A stretch of DNA of 64,000 nt from NCBI GenBank assembly GCA_943704415.1, contig CALSCO010000113.1, forward strand, positions 1 to 64,000, in the 5' to 3' direction. Below the pieces are notes generated by a model. That model made no database searches, was not told where the DNA came from, and saw only the letters and a list, made by a program, of their open reading frames with translations. The translations under genes were made by a program, and so were the position numbers. Below, piece by piece: positions 29,316-59,157 of the stretch (positions within the stretch are counted from its first letter, which is position 1; every line of letters starts with the position of its first letter). This DNA is from Parvularia atlantis. Taxonomy: Eukaryota.

Positions 29316-30521
29316 TCACCACTGCTCGGCGAGCCACTCGAGCCAGCGGCCGTGCGCCTGGCCCCGCGCGAGCAGCACGTCGTCGTCGCCCTCGCGCAGC
29401 CGCGGCCACAGGCTCACGCGCAGCTCGGCGATGCCCGGCGTCGCGCCGTCCTCCATCCGCAGCCACGCGAGCGGGCGCTCGGGTGTTGCGGCCGCGCCGG
29501 CCGCGTGCAGCTGCGCTTGGATGTCGTCGCGGTCGCCGGGGCTCAGGTACGGCCAGATGTACGAGTGGTGCACGATCGTGAGCCGCGGTGCCGCTGCCTC
29601 GCCCTGTGCCTCGTGCCACGCCGCCAGCTCGGCGCGCAGGAACGAGCACGCGTCCTGCTCGCGCACGGGCGCTGGGTCGACCGCCGCCGCCGCCAGCGCC
29701 GCGTTGAGCGTGCGGAAGCGCTCGGTCAGGTCGGGCCAGACGTAGGCCTGCAGCAGCCGGCGCGCATCGGCGCTGGTGACGTCGACGGGGGCGAGATCGC
29801 AGCCGAGACGCGACACGACGCGGAACCGGCTGTGGGGCGCGTCCGTGCCCGCAAACGCCGCCGGCACGTCGCCCGCGCGCCACTCGGGGCGGATGACCAC
29901 CGGCGCGTCCGGCACGCCCCACGTCCACGTGCGCGCGCCGTGGTACTCGTAGCGGTACTTGTCGAGGCGCAGGATGAGGCCCGCGCTCGAGCCGATCTCG
30001 CGCAGGGCGAGCGGCAGCTTGGCCCCGAAGCGCGCCCAGACGTACAGCAGGCTCGGCAGGAGGCAGCTGCCGCGCGAGACCTCGTTCGTCTGCTGCGCGC
30101 GGTCGACGAAGGGGCGCAGGAACGCGCGTTCGCGCTGCAGCGTCTCGCTGGCGGCCTCCCACGCCGCATCCGACCACGGCTCGACCTGCTCGCCGGCGGT
30201 CGTCGGCAGGAAGCGCGCGTACTCGGGCGCACGCCCGCTCAGCGCCTGCGCGCCGCGACGGTCACGCGCCCGCCGCGATTTGCCGCCCCGCCCGCGTGCG
30301 CGACGCGCCAGATAGTGCAGCCCGCACGCGACGCGGATGGGCAGATACTCGAGCGCGGCGACGCCGACCCAGTCGCTGCACAGCTCCCAGACGGCACCGG
30401 AGCCGTGCGCAACGTCCTCCGCGCAGCGCTCGAGCAGGCGCCGGTGGAGGTCGCTGCCCATGCGCGCGCTCAGCGCCGCCATCTCGCGGAAGGCGCCGGC
30501 GAGTGCTGTCGCGCTCTGCAT
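29316..30521 (-). CDS. DUF2332-family protein (bacterial type); one in-frame GC-AG intron at 30246-30308
   Basis: QTNEVSRGSCL, LREIGSSAGLILRLDKYRY, GCDLAPVD, LQAYVWPD..RFRTL, C-terminal LARGQAHGRWLEW. Confidence 0.82.
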   Translation of the reverse strand: MQSATALAGAFREMAALSARMGSDLHRRLLERCAEDVAHGSGAVWELCSDWVGVAALEYLPIRVACGLHYLARRARGRGGKSRRARDRRGAQALSGRAPEYARFLPTTAGEQVEPWSDAAWEAASETLQRERAFLRPFVDRAQQTNEVSRGSCLLPSLLYVWARFGAKLPLALREIGSSAGLILRLDKYRYEYHGARTWTWGVPDAPVVIRPEWRAGDVPAAFAGTDAPHSRFRVVSRLGCDLAPVDVTSADARRLLQAYVWPDLTERFRTLNAALAAAAVDPAPVREQDACSFLRAELAAWHEAQGEAAAPRLTIVHHSYIWPYLSPGDRDDIQAQLHAAGAAATPERPLAWLRMEDGATPGIAELRVSLWPRLREGDDDVLLARGQAHGRWLEWLAEQW

Positions 30522-31040
30522 GTGCGATCAGGCTGCAGAGCGTGCAAAGTAGCACACAAAGAGAGTCCGTCTCACGGCCTGCCTCCTGCCGCGCTTCGGG
30601 CTTTCTCAATATGCAGCGCCCTGTCGTCGTGCTCGTGCCCACGATGTCGATGGCATGCCGTGTGCGTCCACGGCGAGCTGGGCGACCCGAGTGGTGCAGG
30701 AGGTCGGCGCGCGTGTGCTGTGGTGCCAGCCCAGGTCGGCGGCGGTCAGCGCGGTGGCCCCGTCGATTGGCGTTTCCGCGCAGACATAGCGCGCTTCAGC
30801 AGCCATCTGCTCGGCCGCATGCGCCCGCCCGCTGCTGGCCACGACGGCCACGCTGCTCAGGACGGGACGAGAACGAGCTGCTCGGCCGGCTCGACGTGTG
30901 CCTGCGGGCCGCGGGTTCCGCCGTCCCGTTCCACGCGGCGTCGCAAGACAAGGTCCGCGTCCGCGTCCGCGTCGAACGGCATCCGTACAACGAATGTTGT
31001 GCATTGTGGCGCACTTTCGTGTACAAGGCGGACTGGGTGC

Positions 31041-50492: not shown

Positions 50493-51074
50493 TCACAACT
50501 CCTCGTCTACGTCGTCCGCAGCTGCTGCTGCTACCGGTGCGGCCACAGCAGGGGCGGACGTCCCGACGAGGCCGTGCAGGTGCCGCCGCAGACGCTCCAA
50601 CACGACCTCGTTCTTGGCGCTGAACAGGAACGCGCCCTGCCCGCGCACGTCCAGCCGCAGGTGCACCGCCTGCCTCGGCTCGGCAGTTTTCTGCGGAGAC
50701 GCAGCTGTCAGGTGCTGCGCTTGTGAGCCCACGCCCGGCGCACCCGCTCTGTCGACGGCTTGCGGTACAGCACGCTGCCCAGCAGCTCGTCCATCTCGAT
50801 CTCGTCGTCCGGGAACACGCTGTTGTCGCGCTCGGCCGGGTCCACGACGGCGATTGGCAGCCTGCACGCGCGGTCAGCCGCGGCACTGCAGCGCAAGCGC
50901 AGCCGGCGACGTCACTGGAAGTCGATCAGCGCCAGGCCCGACAGGACCGTGAGCATGATCGCAAAGTACTCGGGGTCGCGCATGAGCGCGTCCGACGCGT
51001 ACAGCTGCGCGAGCGTGTACCGGTTGCCGCCCGCCGTGACTGGTGCGCCTGCAACACGTGCGCGCTCAGAGGCT

Positions 51075-51154
<80 letters not shown>

Positions 51155-53981
51155 GCACACACGCCCACAACGCGCACCTGCCATGGCCGCGGCGTGCAGG
51201 GCCTCGAGGCACTCGGTCAGCGTGTACATCGACGAGGACGTGGCGGGCGCGTGCCCGCTGCTCCGGTTGAGCGCGAGCCGGATCCACGCCTGGCACAGCA
51301 GCGAGTCGTCGCTCGGCAGGTCGAGCGACTGCAAGTACGCCGTGTCGTCCCTGATCACCCGGCGCGTCAGCACAAGCAGCGCGACGCTACTCGGCGCACT
51401 TGGGGATCATCGGCTTAAGCACGGCGTCCCAGAAGACCGCGCGCCGGGCCGCGCCGCGGAACAGCGAGAAGGCGTCCGGCGCCGTCCCAAAGCCGTGCTT
51501 GAGGCACAGCTCTATCCGCTCCGCGAGGTTCTCGACGGCTGCGCGCGCACATTGCCCGTCAGCGCCATCCGTCCGCGCACACAAGACGGCGCGCACCGGG
51601 TGTCAGTTCGCCCACCGTCACGAGCGACTTGCTGGCACGACTGGGCTCGCTGTCCGGCCCACCCGCCCGTACGGTCTTGGGGATGAGCCCGTGCAGCTTC
51701 TGCGCTCGGACGGCTCCATGAGATGCCGTGGCGCACAACGCAGCCCGCCCGCACCTGCACGGCCATCTGCAGCTCGTCGCACAGCATCTGCTTGACCTGC
51801 AGCTCGCTCACGATCGTGCGCGGGTTGCGCACGGGGTTCTGCGCGGGCCATCGCGTTGGCTGCGTGACGCGTGAGGGCCGACGGACAGTGACGCACCGGA
51901 TTGCGCTGCACCAGTGCCTGCGGCAACATGAGAGACGGGCTCTTGGCGTAGACGCTCTCCTGCGTCTTCAGCACGACGTATGCGCCATATGCCTGCTCCT
52001 CTTGGTTGATCTCGCGCAGCTCGCGGAAGCTGCGATGCGCGCGTGTGACTGCTGGTCCACGCACACGCACACAGCGCACCTTGTCAAGTCGCCCACGGCA
52101 AAGCTGAAGCGGAAGCGCCGCACGCCGTGCACTTTCACCAGCGGATCGCTCTTGAGCGGCTCGAAGTAGATGCTGTGCGCGGCGGAACGGTCAGGCGGGG
52201 CCGCGAACCGGCCGGACCGCGCACGCACCGGCTGTGCGTGAACACGAGCACGCCGCTTACGTCGCCGTACGCGCTCTGGCTCTTGACTAGCTCGCGCAGC
52301 TGCACCTGGCGTGCGGGCAGCGCATGAGCGGCTCAGCGGCGCGTGGCGAGCAACGAGACGCACGAGCGCAGTCGACGTGGACGAGCGCGAGGTCCGCGCT
52401 GGCCGTGTGGCGGGCGACGTCGCCGTTGGTAATGCGGCGCGGGGCGATGCGGGCGCGTCCTCGGGCTCGTCCGCAAAGTCGTCGTTGCCGAGCTCGTCGT
52501 CGCGCAGGTAGTCGGGCACGCGGTCCTGCACGATGAACGGCGACAGGTGGCGCTTGCCGAGCTCGTTCACCTGCCTGGCGCCCGCACCCCACAGCATGAG
52601 CGCTGGACGCACGTGCGCGCTCATTGTCATCACCTTGCCAGGTCGTCGTAGTCCTCCAGCGACGTGCACAGGAACCCAAGCAGCAGCGACGGGTCGATCT
52701 GGTTGTGGCGCAGACGCAGCGGCGCATGGTTTACCTGGAAGCTGCGTAGCTTGTCCTGCACGGCGCGTGTCAGCCGCCAGCCCTGGAACGCGCCCGCCGA
52801 CGAGACACGCACCATGCCGCACGCCTTGAGGTCGGGCAGCGGCACCATCGGCTGGGTCGTGTGCGGGTCCAGGTAGTAAAAGTGCTGCGCGTCGCTGCCG
52901 AAGAAGAACATGGCCTGGTGCGCCGTCTGGCCGTTGCGGTACCTCTGCAGGCCTGCGTCCCACAGGCGTGAGCAAGGCGCGCCGCGGCCAAGCCTCGCTC
53001 GCGCACACACGCACCGAGGTTGGACCCGATGCGCGCCGCGAGCAGGTTGCCCTGCTTGGCTCCGACAAAGCCCACAAACTGCCGCATGCGAAAGTACTCG
53101 CACATGGCTGGGATATACTCGGCGTTCAGCGTGAGGCCGAGGCGCAGCGGGATCAGGATAAGCAAGCCGCGCGCGTCGCCCGCCGCATCGACGAGCTTGG
53201 CGACCTCGGAGCGGTACACGGAGCCGTCGCGGCAGAGCAGCGCGCCCGTGTCGAACGGGTGGTGCTCCTGCATGAGCGACGCGACGACCTGCGCGCACGA
53301 CGTCGGGCTGTGCCACTGGCCGACGCTCGTCTTGTAAAACTCGCCTGTGATCGCCAGCTGGTGGATCGAGTAGGGCGCGCTCGGCGCGGGCGTGTCGTGA
53401 AACCACGAGAGCATGGTGCGGTACACGCCAAAGACCTCGGCCGCGTCGGTGTCATCGCCCATAACGAGCCCCGCCACGCTCTGCTTCATCTGCAGCAGGC
53501 GCTGCGCGTAGTGCGGCCCGAGCCGTCGCCGCAACAGCGCCTCGGCGAGCAGCATCTGCGCCGAGCGCAGGACGCAGCCCCACGACGTGTCGGCCTGACG
53601 CCGATGTCAGCGCGCACCCACGTCTGATATCGCTCTCACCGCGCGTACCGTTAGGTTCGTGTGCCCGATCGGCGCGAAGCCCGAGCGGTAGCTCAGCCAC
53701 GGCCGCTGGCCGTACTCGGTCAGGAACGCCGTCGCGGCGGCGCGCTGCGCCTCGGTCCACGCCGCGCTGCCGCCTGCGCCGCCGCTTCCGCTCCCGCCTA
53801 ATCCACCGGCACCGCCGAGCAGCGTCGACGACGCGGCCTGGAAGAGCGCGAACGCGGGCGATGCGGCCGGCGCGACGAGCGTCGTGGGTGGCGTGGCCGG
53901 CGCCACGCCCAGCAGCGCTTCAGGCGGCACGTCGGCGCAAACGCGCCCTCCCGCGAAGTGCACCGTGCTGAGCGGCACCAT
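50493..53981 (-). CDS. ATG4: Atg4 cysteine protease with a C-terminal GRAM/PH-like and RUN domain extension; start uncertain
   Basis: Atg4: WLSYRSGF, DTSWGCVLRSAQMLLA, PYSIH, LIPLRLG, YLDPH, IDPSLLLGF. Phase-consistent splicing leads on to GVLVFTHSR|IYFEPLKSDPLV (OXR1-type GRAM-like) and to RUN (IELCLKHGF, FWD, AWIRLALN, YASDALMRD...LSGLALIDF). Confidence 0.8.
51078..51150 (+). repeat. (CA)n microsatellite, about 36 units, inside an intron
   Basis: Perfect CA run. Confidence 0.97.
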
Positions 53982-54027
53982 CGACTTTCGATACTGTGAC
54001 ACCGCATTAACTGGAGGGGCACCTGAT

Positions 54028-54642
54028 ATGGCGGCGAACCTTTTGATGTCGCGCCTCGTTCGTTCTCCTCGAGCGCGGCCTCGCTGTGCACGTCGGCCAC
54101 AAGCACCCGGTGTTCCCGGCGTTGACCGCGACGGTCGCCGATCGAGCGGACGCGACGGGCGAAGCGCTCTCCGCTCAGTGCGCCGACGCCGCACCGAGCG
54201 CCGCACCGAGCGCCGCACCCAGCACCTCGGTCGTCGACGGCGGCGTGGCGTGCTCGGTCTGCGGGCAGACGTTCGTCAGCAAGTTAGGTGCAGCAATTCA
54301 CATGGGCCGCGTGCATCGTCGACCGGGTGCGGCGCCGCAGCCTGCCCGCGCAGGTCGTGTTTGCGCCTGTCGTGCAGCCTGCGCCCGCGCTGCTTAGTGC
54401 CGCCATCGAGCGCATCCGCTTCGCCGTCAAGGATACGCTGCTGCGCTTCGCTCGGCCGCAGCAGGGCAACCGCGTGCGCGAGCGTGCTGGTCGCGCGCAG
54501 CTACGCCCGCGGCATGTTCACCATGTCGTTCTGCGCAACCTGCACCTCGTCGCGCACGGTGACCGCGCCCGCACCCGTGCCCGCTGCGCCTGAGCCCGCA
54601 CCCGCCGCGCCCGCGCCCCAACCGCCTAGTGTTTCTGCATGA
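54028..54642 (+). pseudogene. Disrupted C2H2 zinc-finger ORF, probably transposon-borne
   Basis: CSVCGQTFVSKLGAAIHMGRVH in ORF 54086-54397. Coding-like text continues in other frames to TGA at 54640-54642. Confidence 0.45.
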
Positions 54643-54643
54643 A

Positions 54644-56140
54644 CTACTTGGACTTGAACACAACATGATGGACGCGGTTGGTGAGGAGGGGAGGGGGTCT
54701 GTACAGGGAGCGGTTCTCCTTCTCCATCGTCGTCAGCACGGCCGACTTGCGAAGGGAACCGCCCCCGTGTGTGGTGTGGGTAAAGTAGAACGAAGCGTGT
54801 TGATGATTCTTCTTCTCAACGGGCTCGGTTGAGAGGTGGCTCAGCGGCACACCGAGCTTGGCGCACGTGCGCAAATGGTCACCGAGATGGGCGATCAGGG
54901 CATGGAGGTACGGTGTCACCGGCACAGGCGCGCCGGCGATGACTTTGTCCGTGTCCTCCATGCGGGCGGGAGCATCTTGGTCAACAGCCGGCATGGGCTG
55001 ACCGAAGACGAGATCAACGACGTGGAGGTGTGTGCACATTCGCGCATGCGGCTGAGCGCGTGCCTCACCCGTGCGCTGCATCAGAACTCTGCACGTGCCT
55101 TCCTGCGCGGCCTCGCGACGTCGGGCAGTGACCCTGGCCGCCCGTACGCGCGCGAATTGGGACACGTTCATCGTCGTTTATGACGCGGCCAAGTCCAGCT
55201 TCTGCAGCAGCGCGTACTTGGCCGGCCGGCGCAGGCTCGTCCAGTTCAGAGATCCTGTGAGACGTCAGTGCACGTGCGCGTGAATGCGTGAGCGCACCGG
55301 ACGCCGTGCCCGTCGCCTCGTCACGCGACGCCCAAAAGTTGATGGTCACACCGACATCGGCAGCGGCGGTGGTGAGGGCGGCAACTGCGGTCGCGTGGCA
55401 TGTGCGCGAACGCGTGGCGGACATGGTTGTAGTCCTTGCCGCACGCGAGCAGGGCGACGGGCAGCTGCGCGTCGGGCGTGCGGTTCATGTCGGTCCCGGT
55501 CACGATCGCGACAGTGACCATCGTGTGGGTGACCGAGCCCACGCGGCGGCCGTCGCCCGAAAACTACCCGGCGAGGTATGAGTGCACGCACAGGTCATGC
55601 GCGCGCGCACTTTCAGCAGGGGGCGCGTCGGCTTGGGTACCATGCCCCGCAGCACGTGCGTCAGCAACGGGCGCAGCGGGCGGCGCCAGGCGTCGTTTAG
55701 GCCCTCCACGCGCTATATCGGCACCGCGCGCCATCTCCTCCGTCTCGCCGCTTGCGCTCCTCGGCCACTGCGTCGCACGCGATGTTCAGCAGCGAGCAGA
55801 GTGCCGCACGCTTGTGCACCCCGATACTCGCGCGCCATTTCAGGCGTGAGCGCGGCCAGGGCGCGGTACGCGTCGCGGCTGCAGCCTGTGCTGTCCAGCA
55901 CGTGGACGGCCTTGGCGAGGCGGGCACGGGCCTCCTTGTTCTGCAAGCGTGTCTCAGAGACCAGCGCGACCAGAGCGCGCGCACGCACCGGCATGTCGTT
56001 CGGGCCAAGCGAGTGGTCGTCGTCGAACGTCATGCGCACGCGCTCGCCGGCAAAGTTGGCGTCGATGCCCAGCAGCGTGGCGTCGTCCACGGCATTGCGC
56101 TTGCAGGACTCGTTGAATGCCGCACGTGCGTCGCTGGTCA
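54644..56140 (-). pseudogene. Degenerate RAG1/Transib-like DDE transposase
   Basis: Fragments across frames: LDSTGCSRDAYRALAAL, FSGDGRRVG...MVTVAIV (first Asp), INFW, NWTSL...LLQKL, and VTPYLHALIAHL...LSTEPVEKKNH...TTHGG (resembles RAG1 TNYFHKTLAH...SEGNE). Has in-frame stops, frameshifts and an apparent deletion of the central Asp/CxxC region. Confidence 0.6.
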
Positions 56141-56945
56141 CAGAGCGCCGCACGCCCCACACGTCTTGGACGTGTACTCCTCCGTGCATGTAATCACCTC
56201 ACACCGCGGGTGCTCGCGCGACTTGTGTAGCAGCAGCATCCAAAACGTGTAGTGGGAGAGCGTGAGCAGGCGCCGCGCCGTCTTGCTCCGGATCCGCCGC
56301 GCCCCGCGCCGGACCATCTGCTGCGTCTCGAACCGCGGCAGCAGCACCACGCGGTAGTTGCGGCACAGCCACAGGGCCAGCTTGCGGTGCATCTCGTCGA
56401 CCAGGTTGCGAATCCGCTGCAGAAGGCGCCGGCCCGCGCGACGCAGTCGGTACCGCCGCCGCTTGCGCGTCTCGCGCGCATCCATCTTGCCCTGCAACTT
56501 GTCGTACGCGCGGCACAGACGGTACACCCGCCCGATGTCGCCTGGCCCCACTCGACCACGCGCCCGTCCGCGTCGTAGCCCGTCATGAACGTGCGCACGC
56601 CCAGGTCCAGCGCAATCACGCCGTGCAGTCGGCCCGGAAGACCAGCGGTTGCGGCATGCACAGGTACTGTGCGCACCAACCGCGCGTCGCACGCCTTCTT
56701 CTGGCCGTGGCTGGGGAAGACGCGCAGCTTGAGCGTCTTGAGCGGCTGCGCAGCCTCGTCCACGTCGTCGTCAGGGTTCGGCTCGTCCGCGTGCGGCTCA
56801 GACGGCGTTGTCGGCGTCTTCTTGGTGCGGCGACGCTTCTTGTGCGGCGGCTGTTGCGTCTGCACGGCGGCGGCGGCGTGGCCGTTCTGGCGCGCCACAG
56901 AGTGCGTGACGACGGCGAGGAGGTCGTGCAGTGCGTGGATGGGAC
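56138..56945 (-). pseudogene. IS607-derived Fanzor2/TnpB nuclease remnant preceded by the C-terminus of a serine-recombinase TnpA
   Basis: DLLAVVTHSVARQNG (IS607 TnpA C-terminal helix), KTLKLRVFP, RuvC-I ALDLGVRTFMTGYD, bridge helix RIRNLVDEMHRKLALWLC, LPRFETQQMV, LSHYTF, TEEYTSKTCGACG. Frameshift at about 56545. Truncated before RuvC-III. Confidence 0.88.
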
Positions 56946-57031
56946 TGGCTGTTTGCCGGCTGCGAGGGCCCGGCGGGCACGCTTACATAGGGCGGCCGGA
57001 AGTTGGATGCGCTAACGTCAGCGGGAACACT

Positions 57032-59157
57032 CTAAATGATCACTTCAAGGGTGTGCGGTCGCGGAGGCGAGGGCCGGGTCGGTCGGGGGCACGGCCGCGG
57101 GCAGCGCAGACAGGTCGATCTTGGTCGAGTGGTACTTGGCGGGCGGCAGCTCGTGGTGCAGGCTGCGCCAGACGCGGTGCCGCACCTGCGAGCGCGGTCA
57201 GCTTGTCTCGCGCGCAACTGAGCGCGCACCGTGAACACGATCGCGAGGGCGACGGCAAAGGCGCACATGGCCACGGTGATTATGAACGCCTGCCGGTAGC
57301 ACCCGTTGCCCTGCCACAACGGTCAGGACGCACGACAACGAGCACAAAGGACACGCACCGCGCAGAGCGTGCCGTCGCCCGGCGAGTGGCTGTCGTAGAT
57401 GTACCCAAAGATGAGGTTCGTGATCGGCCCGGCAACCGCGGGCGCGAGGAGCATGCTGCCCCTGTCGGTGCGCAGCGAGTCAGCGGGGGGCCAGCTGCAG
57501 CGACTGCGGCTGCGCACGCACCAGTTGGAGCCGAACGAGCGTGTGCCGAAGAGGTCACCCACGAGCGTCGGGATGAGGCAGAAGGTGCTGCCGTAGGCGA
57601 CGCCGACGAGCACTGTGACCGCGTACAGTTGCTGCACGTCGCTGGTCTGGAGCGTGTGTGAGCGCGCACACCGGTTAAACAAAGCGCCGCACACCGTCAG
57701 CGCAACGATCTGTGCGATCGTCATGAGCGACGACACGCCGATGAGGAACGCGCGCCGCGACAGGTGGAAGTCGCGCAGGTACCAGTCCGACACGACGCCC
57801 ATGATCAGGCGCCCGGCGAAGTTGCTCGCCGACAGCACGGACGCGTGCGTCGAGATGAGCACGCTGATGTCTGCGCGGCGTTCGTCACGGGCCGATTGCA
57901 CAGTCGCGGCCGCTGCGCGCACCCTCGGCCGTGTACGAGCCCGCCTGTGTCGCCAGCGACTTGATGACCGCGCTCAGGTTGTTAATGTACATCAGGCCAG
58001 ACGACGCCGACATGAACAGGACCAGGAACAGCAGCCAGTAGTCGGGTTGCTGCGGCGCGCGCGGCCTGAGCTGAACGCCGCTGCGGCCACCGAGCACGAG
58101 CGCACCCTGGCAAGCGCGAGCCCGTTGTAGTCGTGCTTCGAGTGCTGCGGCTCGTGGCGCGCGAGCACCGCGTCCTTCTTGAGGTCGGCGTGCGAGACGT
58201 CGGGCGGGCTGACGATGAGCGACTCCTGCGGCAACACGTCAGTTTCGCATCATGCAAACACGTGTTGTGCCGCGCGCGCACCCGCCGGATGTTGCGCGCC
58301 GCGGGCGAGTCGTGGTTGACTGCGAGATTGGTGAAGTGCGCGTGGATAAAGTCGGCCGAGTCGTGCAGGAGGAAGAGCGAGAGGAAGAATACGCCCGCGC
58401 CGCTGATCGCAATCATCTCGATGAACTGCGCCAGCTGCGCACTCGCGGCGCCGTTCGTGACGAACGCGTGCACGTAGATCTGCGCGCGTGTGAGCTCTCG
58501 TTGCGCGCGAGAAATACGGGCGGGTGGCGCGCGCCTGCGAGAAGACGAGCGTCGACAGGCCGAAGAGCGCCACGTGCACGCCCACGATCAGCCCGCGGCT
58601 GCTGTCGGAGAAGTTGCGAATGTTGACGGCGAGCGGGGCGCTGTCTGCACGGCGATCAGCGGCGCCACGTGGGCGCGTCCGGACGGAGCGGACGCACAGG
58701 CCGGCGCGCCGCCGATGCCCACGAGCACGTAGAAGAACGTCATGAGGCCGTAGTTGGTCGTGGCCAGGCGGCCCGCGAGCATCGCCGAGACGAGGCCGTA
58801 CGCGAGCGGCTGGATGACGAGTGCGGCGAGCATGGCCGGGATGTGTCCGCGCTTGTCAACGACGTAGCCGAAGCCCCACTGTGCGAGGTACGCGGCTGAC
58901 TGCGGCGGGACGGCGCATCAGTCGGCTGCAAGAGCGCAGCGTAGGCTCCACGACTGACTCGCCTGCCCGAGTGTGGCAATGAGCGAGAGCTCCTGCTGTC
59001 TGTAGCCAAGCTGCACGCCCATCGCAGCCATGTACGTGCCGAAGAGGTAGATCGTGCCGCCGTAGAGCATGCACAGCAGGCCGATGGCGACCGACGCGCC
59101 CTTGCGCACGGCCGCGGGCACGCGCGGCGCACGCACGTGCACGTGCGGATGCTCCAT
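57032..59157 (-). CDS. MFS transporter, nodulin-like/Mch1 (OFA-type) family
   Basis: GGTIYLFGTY, GYVVDKRG, NIRNFSDSSRGLIVG..VALFGLS, GLMYINNL, NFAGRLIMGVVSD, LVGDLFGTRSFGSNW, FGYIYD, GNGCY. Many TM segments. Confidence 0.88.

Follow-up and report, generated by a model that had tools for sequence, protein, structure and literature searches.

Eukaryotic IS607 elements (IS607EU) carry tnpA and then Fanzor2 on one strand, with a Fanzor-type catalytic Glu beside the zinc finger and without visible introns (Bao and Jurka 2013, PMC3627910; PDB 9b0l). Fanzor2 is defined by its RuvC similarity and by a catalytic Glu six residues ahead of the zinc finger (PMC13565253). The guide RNA is made from the 3' end of the element directly after the gene, and in a mimivirus element the guide-RNA region was given as about 200 nt after the gene (PMC10530073). 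Fanzor proteins have been reported with CMC and EnSpm elements (PMC10530073, PMC13565253), and the variant Fanzor2* has been described in non-IS607 TIR elements, including those of Chloropicon, which show 5-nt target duplications and whose transposase was reported as unknown (Yoon et al., 10.1101/2023.08.09.552727).

On the side of the DDE transposases, the CMCT clade (RAG1, Transib, Chapaev, EnSpm) is defined by the motif set D..D..C(2)C..H(3-4)H..E (Kojima 2025), and DUF1280 (PF06918) was equated with Chapaev and grouped with RAG1 (Majorek 2014, PMC3985635). RAGL/ProtoRAG elements hold two convergent genes between inverted repeats (PMC7204232, PMC9435367). One survey, which searched fungi with Pfam RAG1, reported that they lack Transib (Muszewska 2017), and 20 fungal Transib-like proteins were listed in another (Tao 2022). 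A Transib derivative made by internal deletion with microhomology has also been described (10.64898/2026.08.26.747230). No paper with "Fanzor" and "Transib" together was found in the literature searched, and no pairing of Fanzor with RAG1 or Chapaev was present among the matches listed. The terms "Transib" and "Chapaev" were absent from two supplementary files of PMC10530073, and neither Parvularia nor the searched mycorrhizal genera were named in one supplementary file of PMC9435367.

The window, that is, the whole stretch of 64,000 nt analysed here, was intron-rich eukaryotic DNA with a G+C content of about 70% and ordinary housekeeping genes. An island of Fanzor2 and transposase remnants was flanked by an MFS-transporter-like gene (judged by eye; stop 57047-57045), which gave no match in a Pfam search at E 1e-4, and by an ATG4-like gene (Pfam Peptidase_C54; likely start 53981). 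The island was collinear between these two ordinary host genes, contained no N, and its G+C content of 0.67-0.69 was the same as that of the host. Based on the sequence alone, the earlier note had described a dead copy in which the minus strand carries a remnant of TnpA, then Fanzor2, an abrupt junction at about 56140 and transposase pieces, co-oriented and spacer-free. This order was borne out by mapped relatives, and the copy, with its deletions, frameshifts and an inversion, is dead. The identity, order and damage of the pieces could be read directly from these alignments (Table 1). At least four large deletions and an inversion were counted within 3 kb; TnpA had lost about 170 residues, Fanzor2 about 129 and the transposase about 130. 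The possibility that all gaps are introns was ruled out, since three are introns and the large gaps are missing sequence. Only G+C-rich, chance-like pairs were obtained when repeats and TIRs were searched in 53500-57600, no further copy of the island was found within the window, and a tRNA search gave none.

Table 1. Features of the decayed island, listed along the minus strand (positions in the window)
Feature	Position	Strand	Evidence or remark
Remnant of DNA upstream of IS607 tnpA (probable left-end/promoter region)	56972..57004	-	7/11 match to N-terminal extension of P0143
IS607 TnpA serine recombinase, C-terminal remnant	56881..56925	-	13/15 residues (87%) identical to P0088 170-184
Fanzor2 5' pieces including RuvC-I	56542..56742	-	Piecewise match to P0023 1-15, 145-152, 159-170, 180-205
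Fanzor2 RuvC core, cut after first CxxC	56141..56539	-	71% to P0023 209-341 (133 aa)
Junction Fanzor2/transposase	56140..56141	-	TGA at 56140-56138 ends Fanzor2 frame, right after first CxxC
Transposase N-terminal pieces, gene start missing	55611..56140	-	P0006, P0013, L002, L016 and others, E 1e-5 to 3e-4
Intron 55610-55564 and exon with first catalytic Asp (SGDG)	55399..55610	-	71% to P0004/P0007 43-98
Transposase middle pieces, intron 55297-55255	55187..55400	-	P0007 227-285
Inverted internal block A of transposase gene	55137..55190	+	P0007 294-311, opposite strand
Probable inverted block B of transposase gene	54983..55126	+	P0001 320-345, score 36-41
Transposase C-terminal part, H-x4-H and catalytic Glu region	54644..54973	-	Family profile E 7.5e-31; P0001 363-452
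Decayed convergent C2H2-finger gene	54028..54642	+	Pfam zf-C2H2 below cut-off, E 0.013
Possible right end of transposase element, starts CATT	54005..54027	+	Candidate; ends of relatives start CAT

The TnpA remnant, which is the C-terminal helix, was also aligned to residues 203-217 of P0143 and matched a viral IS607 tnpA (L077) at 21 of 22 nt. Its identity was based on P0088, in which the Pfam MerR and Resolvase domains were detected. The stretch 57004-56972 gave the top score among 426 windows of 150 nt when compared with P0143, a close IS607 relative that covers the DNA just upstream of TnpA. The Fanzor2 gene retained its N-terminal start (the first 15 core residues), followed by the deletion of about 129 residues and by pieces split by three small frameshifts, and its RuvC-I reads DLG where the family has DPG. 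The segment 56533-56141 matched PDB 9b0l, "TnpB-like protein L79", at E 1.4e-9, the entry of a mimivirus Fanzor2, and 277 longer proteins matched the fragment at E 1e-10 or better. The RuvC core was Fanzor2-like, and its Fanzor-type catalytic Glu stands six residues ahead of the zinc finger. P0023 continues for another 43 residues to its C terminus, among them the second CxxC and the DRD motif, which had no counterpart here; the complete C4 zinc finger, the RD motif and the 3' guide-RNA region were lost at the junction. An Rfam search gave no match at E up to 1. No introns were seen in the IS607 pieces, compared with the introns of the transposase gene.

As in IS607EU (PMC3627910), a serine recombinase TnpA, here a remnant of 15 residues, thus lies upstream of Fanzor2 on the same strand, the Fanzor-type Glu stands beside the zinc finger and no introns were seen; unlike an intact IS607EU, the window copy is dead, and TnpA, the N-terminal half of Fanzor2, its last catalytic motif, the guide-RNA region and the right end were deleted. 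Since the TnpA remnant and the matching upstream DNA were both present, these sequence comparisons indicated that Fanzor2 came as a whole IS607 element, its recombinase and the DNA upstream of it included.

At the junction, the transposase piece was in a frame that differs from that of Fanzor2, and together with the stop codon this ruled out a fused Fanzor2-transposase protein. Sequence was missing from both sides. The Fanzor2 side had lost the last catalytic motif and the guide-RNA region, leaving no room for a guide RNA, and the transposase side had lost the promoter and the N-terminal part; in the relative L016, more than 200 codons precede the position equivalent to the truncated start in the window. 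The 28-nt junction sequence was absent from viral contigs. Given the losses on both sides, the junction was counted among the large deletions of the island, and most likely it marks the scar of a deletion rather than two parts that worked together.

Beyond the junction, the N-terminal pieces of the transposase matched the family profile at E 2.5e-5 and were aligned to residues 5-42 of P0007; an intron interrupts them at 55819-55768, and frameshifts lie near 55750-55715. After the SGDG exon, a deletion of about 130 residues had removed the second Asp, the CxxC and the DxxH, and the match resumed at about residue 230 of P0007. The match of block A was the best of 1028 window ORFs, with a score of 54 compared with 40 for the runner-up. 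The score of block B, which contained an intron-like stretch at 55028-55084, was not above the background best of 40, and this block was assigned solely on the ground that it closes the one gap left in the series of pieces. The stop codon was at 54646-54644. In total, three GT-AG introns were recognized, the first D, the H(4)H and the E region were kept, and the second D and the C(2)C were lost. The pieces between 56129 and 54644 showed 59-71% identity to a Parvularia atlantis transcript family over the matched pieces, and these transcripts were the closest relatives of the transposase that bear a species name.

The earlier note had called this transposase RAG1/Transib-like. No RAG1 or Transib match was obtained for the window fragments against Pfam and PDB sequences, and the RAG1-like assignment therefore rests on relatives. 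The intact relative P0001 was found among longer proteins (63% over 60% of the window query) and in turn found three more. Its motifs follow the order D, D, CxxC, DxxH, H-x4-H, E, and the CMCT motif was complete (starts 51, 133, 153, 371, 401). The AlphaFold model of P0001 (pLDDT 59) has a predicted RAG1-type core fold: Foldseek matched it to RAG1 at E 2.7e-6 and to HzTransib at E 3.7e-4, and VIA-align gave RAG1 the highest Z of 14.3 (rmsd 6.2, 370 aligned), followed by BbRAGL (13.4), the P-element transposase (12.3), HzTransib (9.8) and Hermes (7.5), and neither the Foldseek nor the VIA list contained an EnSpm or Chapaev structure. At the sequence level, neither P0001 nor alignment A2 matched RAG1 or Transib in Pfam and PDB sequences. 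By Atlas features, P0001 was near DUF1280 and RAG1 clusters at 0.92-0.95, with DUF1280 clusters at the top of the list, and sub-threshold DUF1280 matches were detected in 4 of 14 family members (best E 1.4e-4), all of them short and below the curated cut-off.

Based on the motifs, the structural matches and the DUF1280 hits, "RAG1-like" is right for fold and motifs, at the level of the CMCT clade and not of one lineage inside it. The note's label held only in the broad CMCT sense and not for Transib or RAGL specifically. The transposase fits the broad CMCT clade, as judged from motifs and a predicted fold. Shared with that clade were the order D, D, C(2)C, H(4)H, E in P0001, the RAG1-like fold and the CA..TG ends of four relatives; unlike it, the family matched no Pfam family above cut-off, its ends start with CAT, and a convergent C2H2 partner gene was conserved. 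RAGL/ProtoRAG (PMC7204232, PMC9435367) was resembled in that RAG1 was the best structural match of P0001 and in that relatives carry two convergent genes between inverted repeats. It differed in that the partner in the relatives, of about 200 aa, combines a C2H2 finger with an alpha/beta domain and is not a kelch-PHD RAG2, and the ends are not CAC heptamer-like. Features in common with Chapaev/DUF1280 were the sub-threshold hits and the Cys-rich N-terminal region of L016, but these hits were short and below cut-off. The family was found neither in viral contigs nor in prokaryote genomes.

The ends of the transposase elements were characterized in four relatives (L016, L033, L008 and L010), which were bounded by inverted repeats starting with CATA or CATG. 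These agree with the CMCT form 5'-CA..TG-3' and not with the CAC ends of Transib/RAG1. Where a duplication of 2-5 bp is expected for CMCT and one of 5 bp for RAGL, poly-A was present on both sides of L016, and the two flanks differed in L008 and in L033. In the window, a candidate pair, CATT at 57038 (minus strand) and CATT at 54005 (plus strand), encloses both elements; in shuffles its P was about 0.06 (0.06-0.10 over four lengths). The two sites were no more like the L016 end than chance (54005 ranked 631 among 4125 sites), and no target duplication was found at the candidate ends. This borderline pair, if real, would put the IS607 element about 30 nt inside the left end of the transposon, which fits a nested insertion and equally fits carriage as a passenger.

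Taken together, these results made it probable that an IS607-Fanzor2 element inserted into, or right beside, a two-gene CMCT transposon and that later decay fused the two. In the IS607 element, TnpA would have moved the element, and Fanzor2, guided by an RNA made at the right end, would have cut empty sites. The other element is of the CMCT cut-and-paste type, in which the gene for a DDE transposase of RAG1 fold faces a convergent gene for the C2H2-finger partner. The IS607 element would have inserted into the 5' portion of the CMCT element, or immediately next to it, at a site flanked by two host genes, and both would then have decayed by repeated deletions, frameshifts and an inversion. A single deletion would have reached into both elements, taking the Fanzor2 3' end, the guide-RNA region and the right end from one and the promoter and gene start from the other. 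We infer this order of events, and with it which element came first, from the arrangement of the remains. The suggestion of the earlier note that one element had inserted into the other before a deletion was accordingly supported, in the form of insertion into or beside, by the own TnpA and upstream DNA of the Fanzor2 half and by a junction that destroys both genes.

The other suggestion of that note, a RAG-like family that carries Fanzor2, would in its fullest form be a CMCT transposon with an IS607-Fanzor2 cassette between its ends, spread as one unit and represented here by a decayed member, in which Fanzor2 would cut empty donor sites and so restore the element. The co-orientation and tight packing of the halves, and the borderline CATT...AATG end pair around both (P about 0.06), are what such an element would display, and precedents exist in the Fanzor proteins of EnSpm/CMC elements and in the Fanzor2 of Chloropicon TIR elements. 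Linkage of the two parts in relatives gave this suggestion no support. Transposase relatives were sampled as at least 56 metagenome loci (185,616 nt; 20-53% identity to P0001), the flanked ones all distant and none from the host lineage; the close relatives (Parvularia transcripts, P0002, P0088) were 5'-incomplete or flank-free. A Fanzor2 profile, which found the window's own copy at E 3e-69, and seven Fanzor2/TnpA queries matched none of the 56 loci listed, including the four bounded by inverted repeats. The N-terminal part plus at least 700 nt upstream was held by 16 of these 56 loci, and at least 1300 nt upstream by 8. L008 and L010 were near-identical, as were several others, and these do not count as independent.

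In the reverse direction, 78 viral Fanzor2 loci, likewise distant relatives (698,692 nt; 80 of 118 matches taken), were searched, and a broad transposase profile matched none of those listed. A narrower profile gave one weak viral match (L063, E 0.01), which lacked the motifs and was unseen with the broader profile. TnpA was present in 40 of the 78 listed, 34 of them with TnpA on the same strand as Fanzor2, the usual IS607 layout. No transposase part was detected in 120 Fanzor2 proteins of at least 231 aa, taken from 277 matches (best E 0.27). When used as a lone query against viral contigs, the window Fanzor2 found nothing, although the alignment query did find loci. The retained TnpA remnant and the missing target duplication also spoke against a composite, and the element end that would supply the guide could be reached from Fanzor2 only through the transposase gene, over about 900 nt or more. 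The Fanzor2* elements (Yoon et al., 10.1101/2023.08.09.552727) are a precedent for Fanzor2 inside a cut-and-paste element; they encode Fanzor2 only, with clear TIRs and target duplications, whereas the island keeps a TnpA remnant and shows neither clear TIRs nor a duplication. A composite that spread as one unit was therefore considered unlikely.

A nesting in the opposite direction was regarded as improbable. In it, the 3' end of the Fanzor2 gene would have been the target of the CMCT transposon, whose left end would later have been deleted, as would the IS607 tail that it had displaced. This reading would account for the position of the IS607 upstream DNA within about 40 nt of the host stop codon (57045), which leaves little room for an outer transposon end, but the displaced Fanzor2 tail, expected beyond 54005, was found on neither strand, no more than about 24 nt are left there before the ATG4-like gene, and two extra deletions are needed. 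Least probable was a chimera of two repeats made during assembly or amplification: each half is by nature a repeat, and inversions with short overlaps are typical of amplification chimeras, but the island is collinear between ordinary host genes with no N and host-like G+C, and the large number of independent small lesions suggests that it decayed where it stands.

Insertion of IS607 into or beside the CMCT transposon, read as a dead nested pair, would matter little, because transposons often pile up and decay together. The tentative case is a three-part element in the host lineage, with a RAG1-fold transposase, a C2H2 partner and an RNA-guided nuclease, in which the IS607-Fanzor2 cassette sits inside the ends and all spread together. 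Although doubtful, such an element would be a snapshot of Fanzor2 capture before the loss of TnpA, and would show how Fanzor2 passes out of IS607 and into a RAG1-related eukaryotic DDE transposon.

The sturdier by-product of this work was the two-gene CMCT lineage itself, which is transcribed in the nucleariid Parvularia atlantis and has many members in metagenomes. A convergent gene followed the transposase in 29 of the 56 loci listed, and in 25 of the 34 with at least 800 nt downstream. The stop codon of the convergent gene in the window is one base from the transposase stop, and the gene lies in the same position as in the relatives. With a partner profile built from 22 of the partner-bearing loci, this gene ranked at the top of the 1028 window ORFs, but at E 0.05 and by the finger only; a further match of 30 aa was obtained at E 0.08, and hhalign of its remaining pieces gave nothing significant. 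These matches and its position suggested that it is probably, though with weak support, a remnant of the partner gene. The partner protein of the relatives has about 200 residues, with a C2H2-like finger and a predicted alpha/beta domain (model pLDDT 82). Foldseek gave no match for this model at E 0.001, and the best Z by VIA was 4.0 among 48,161 chains, which does not show a new fold. With this partner, which has no clear structural match, RAG1-fold transposases gain a further partner other than RAG2. Its look-alikes in the Atlas were C2H2 clusters without names, mostly from Mucoromycota.

Intact-looking two-gene elements of the CMCT clade were detected at four metagenome-contig loci. The ends of the elements in this group started with CAT, and the inverted repeat of the L016 element was 62 bp with 95% identity. 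For the C2H2-finger partner protein, no clear fold match was obtained in a structure search with the predicted model. These two-gene CMCT elements possibly represent an undescribed lineage.

Intact-looking two-gene CMCT elements in relatives of the window transposase (coordinates of each locus)
Locus	Coordinates	Genes
L016	40-4114	RAG1-fold transposase and convergent C2H2-finger gene
L033	484-4915	RAG1-fold transposase and convergent C2H2-finger gene
L008	137-11226	RAG1-fold transposase and convergent C2H2-finger gene
L013	2956-6367	RAG1-fold transposase and convergent C2H2-finger gene

Additional coding stretches were also observed upstream of the transposase. Further copies of the partner gene were located within the same ends in L008 (1604-2278 and 6335-6616) and L033 (624-1319). 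A Myb/SANT-like ORF was found upstream in L013 (1646-1930 and 2500-2907), and an upstream exon family of L008 (6917-7336 and 2741-3178) gave a weak Ets-domain match (E 5e-4); these may encode the N-terminal part of the transposase as upstream exons, or represent additional cargo. At the protein level, residues 1-25 of the transcript-derived relatives P0001 and P0003 resembled the exon carrying the first catalytic Asp (SGDG exon) read from the opposite strand, which is probably a fold-back artefact from transcript assembly.

In P0088/P0143 (1167-bp contig), a close IS607 relative, an internal deletion joined TnpA in frame to the C-terminus of Fanzor2, which shows that deletions of this kind are recurrent in this family. 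A 12-residue match to residues 179-190 of P0143 TnpA was identified on the plus strand of the window at 55790-55825, with the top score among 1028 ORFs (43, runner-up 37). It overlapped intron 1 of the transposase gene, and was either a chance match or a displaced TnpA fragment.

Elsewhere in the window, a long open frame on the minus strand (29319-30527) matched DUF2332 (E 1e-75), a family described as conserved in bacteria, and gene transfer is possible. At about 51060-51130, an intron of a RUN-domain gene contained a (CA)n/(TG)n microsatellite of considerable length.
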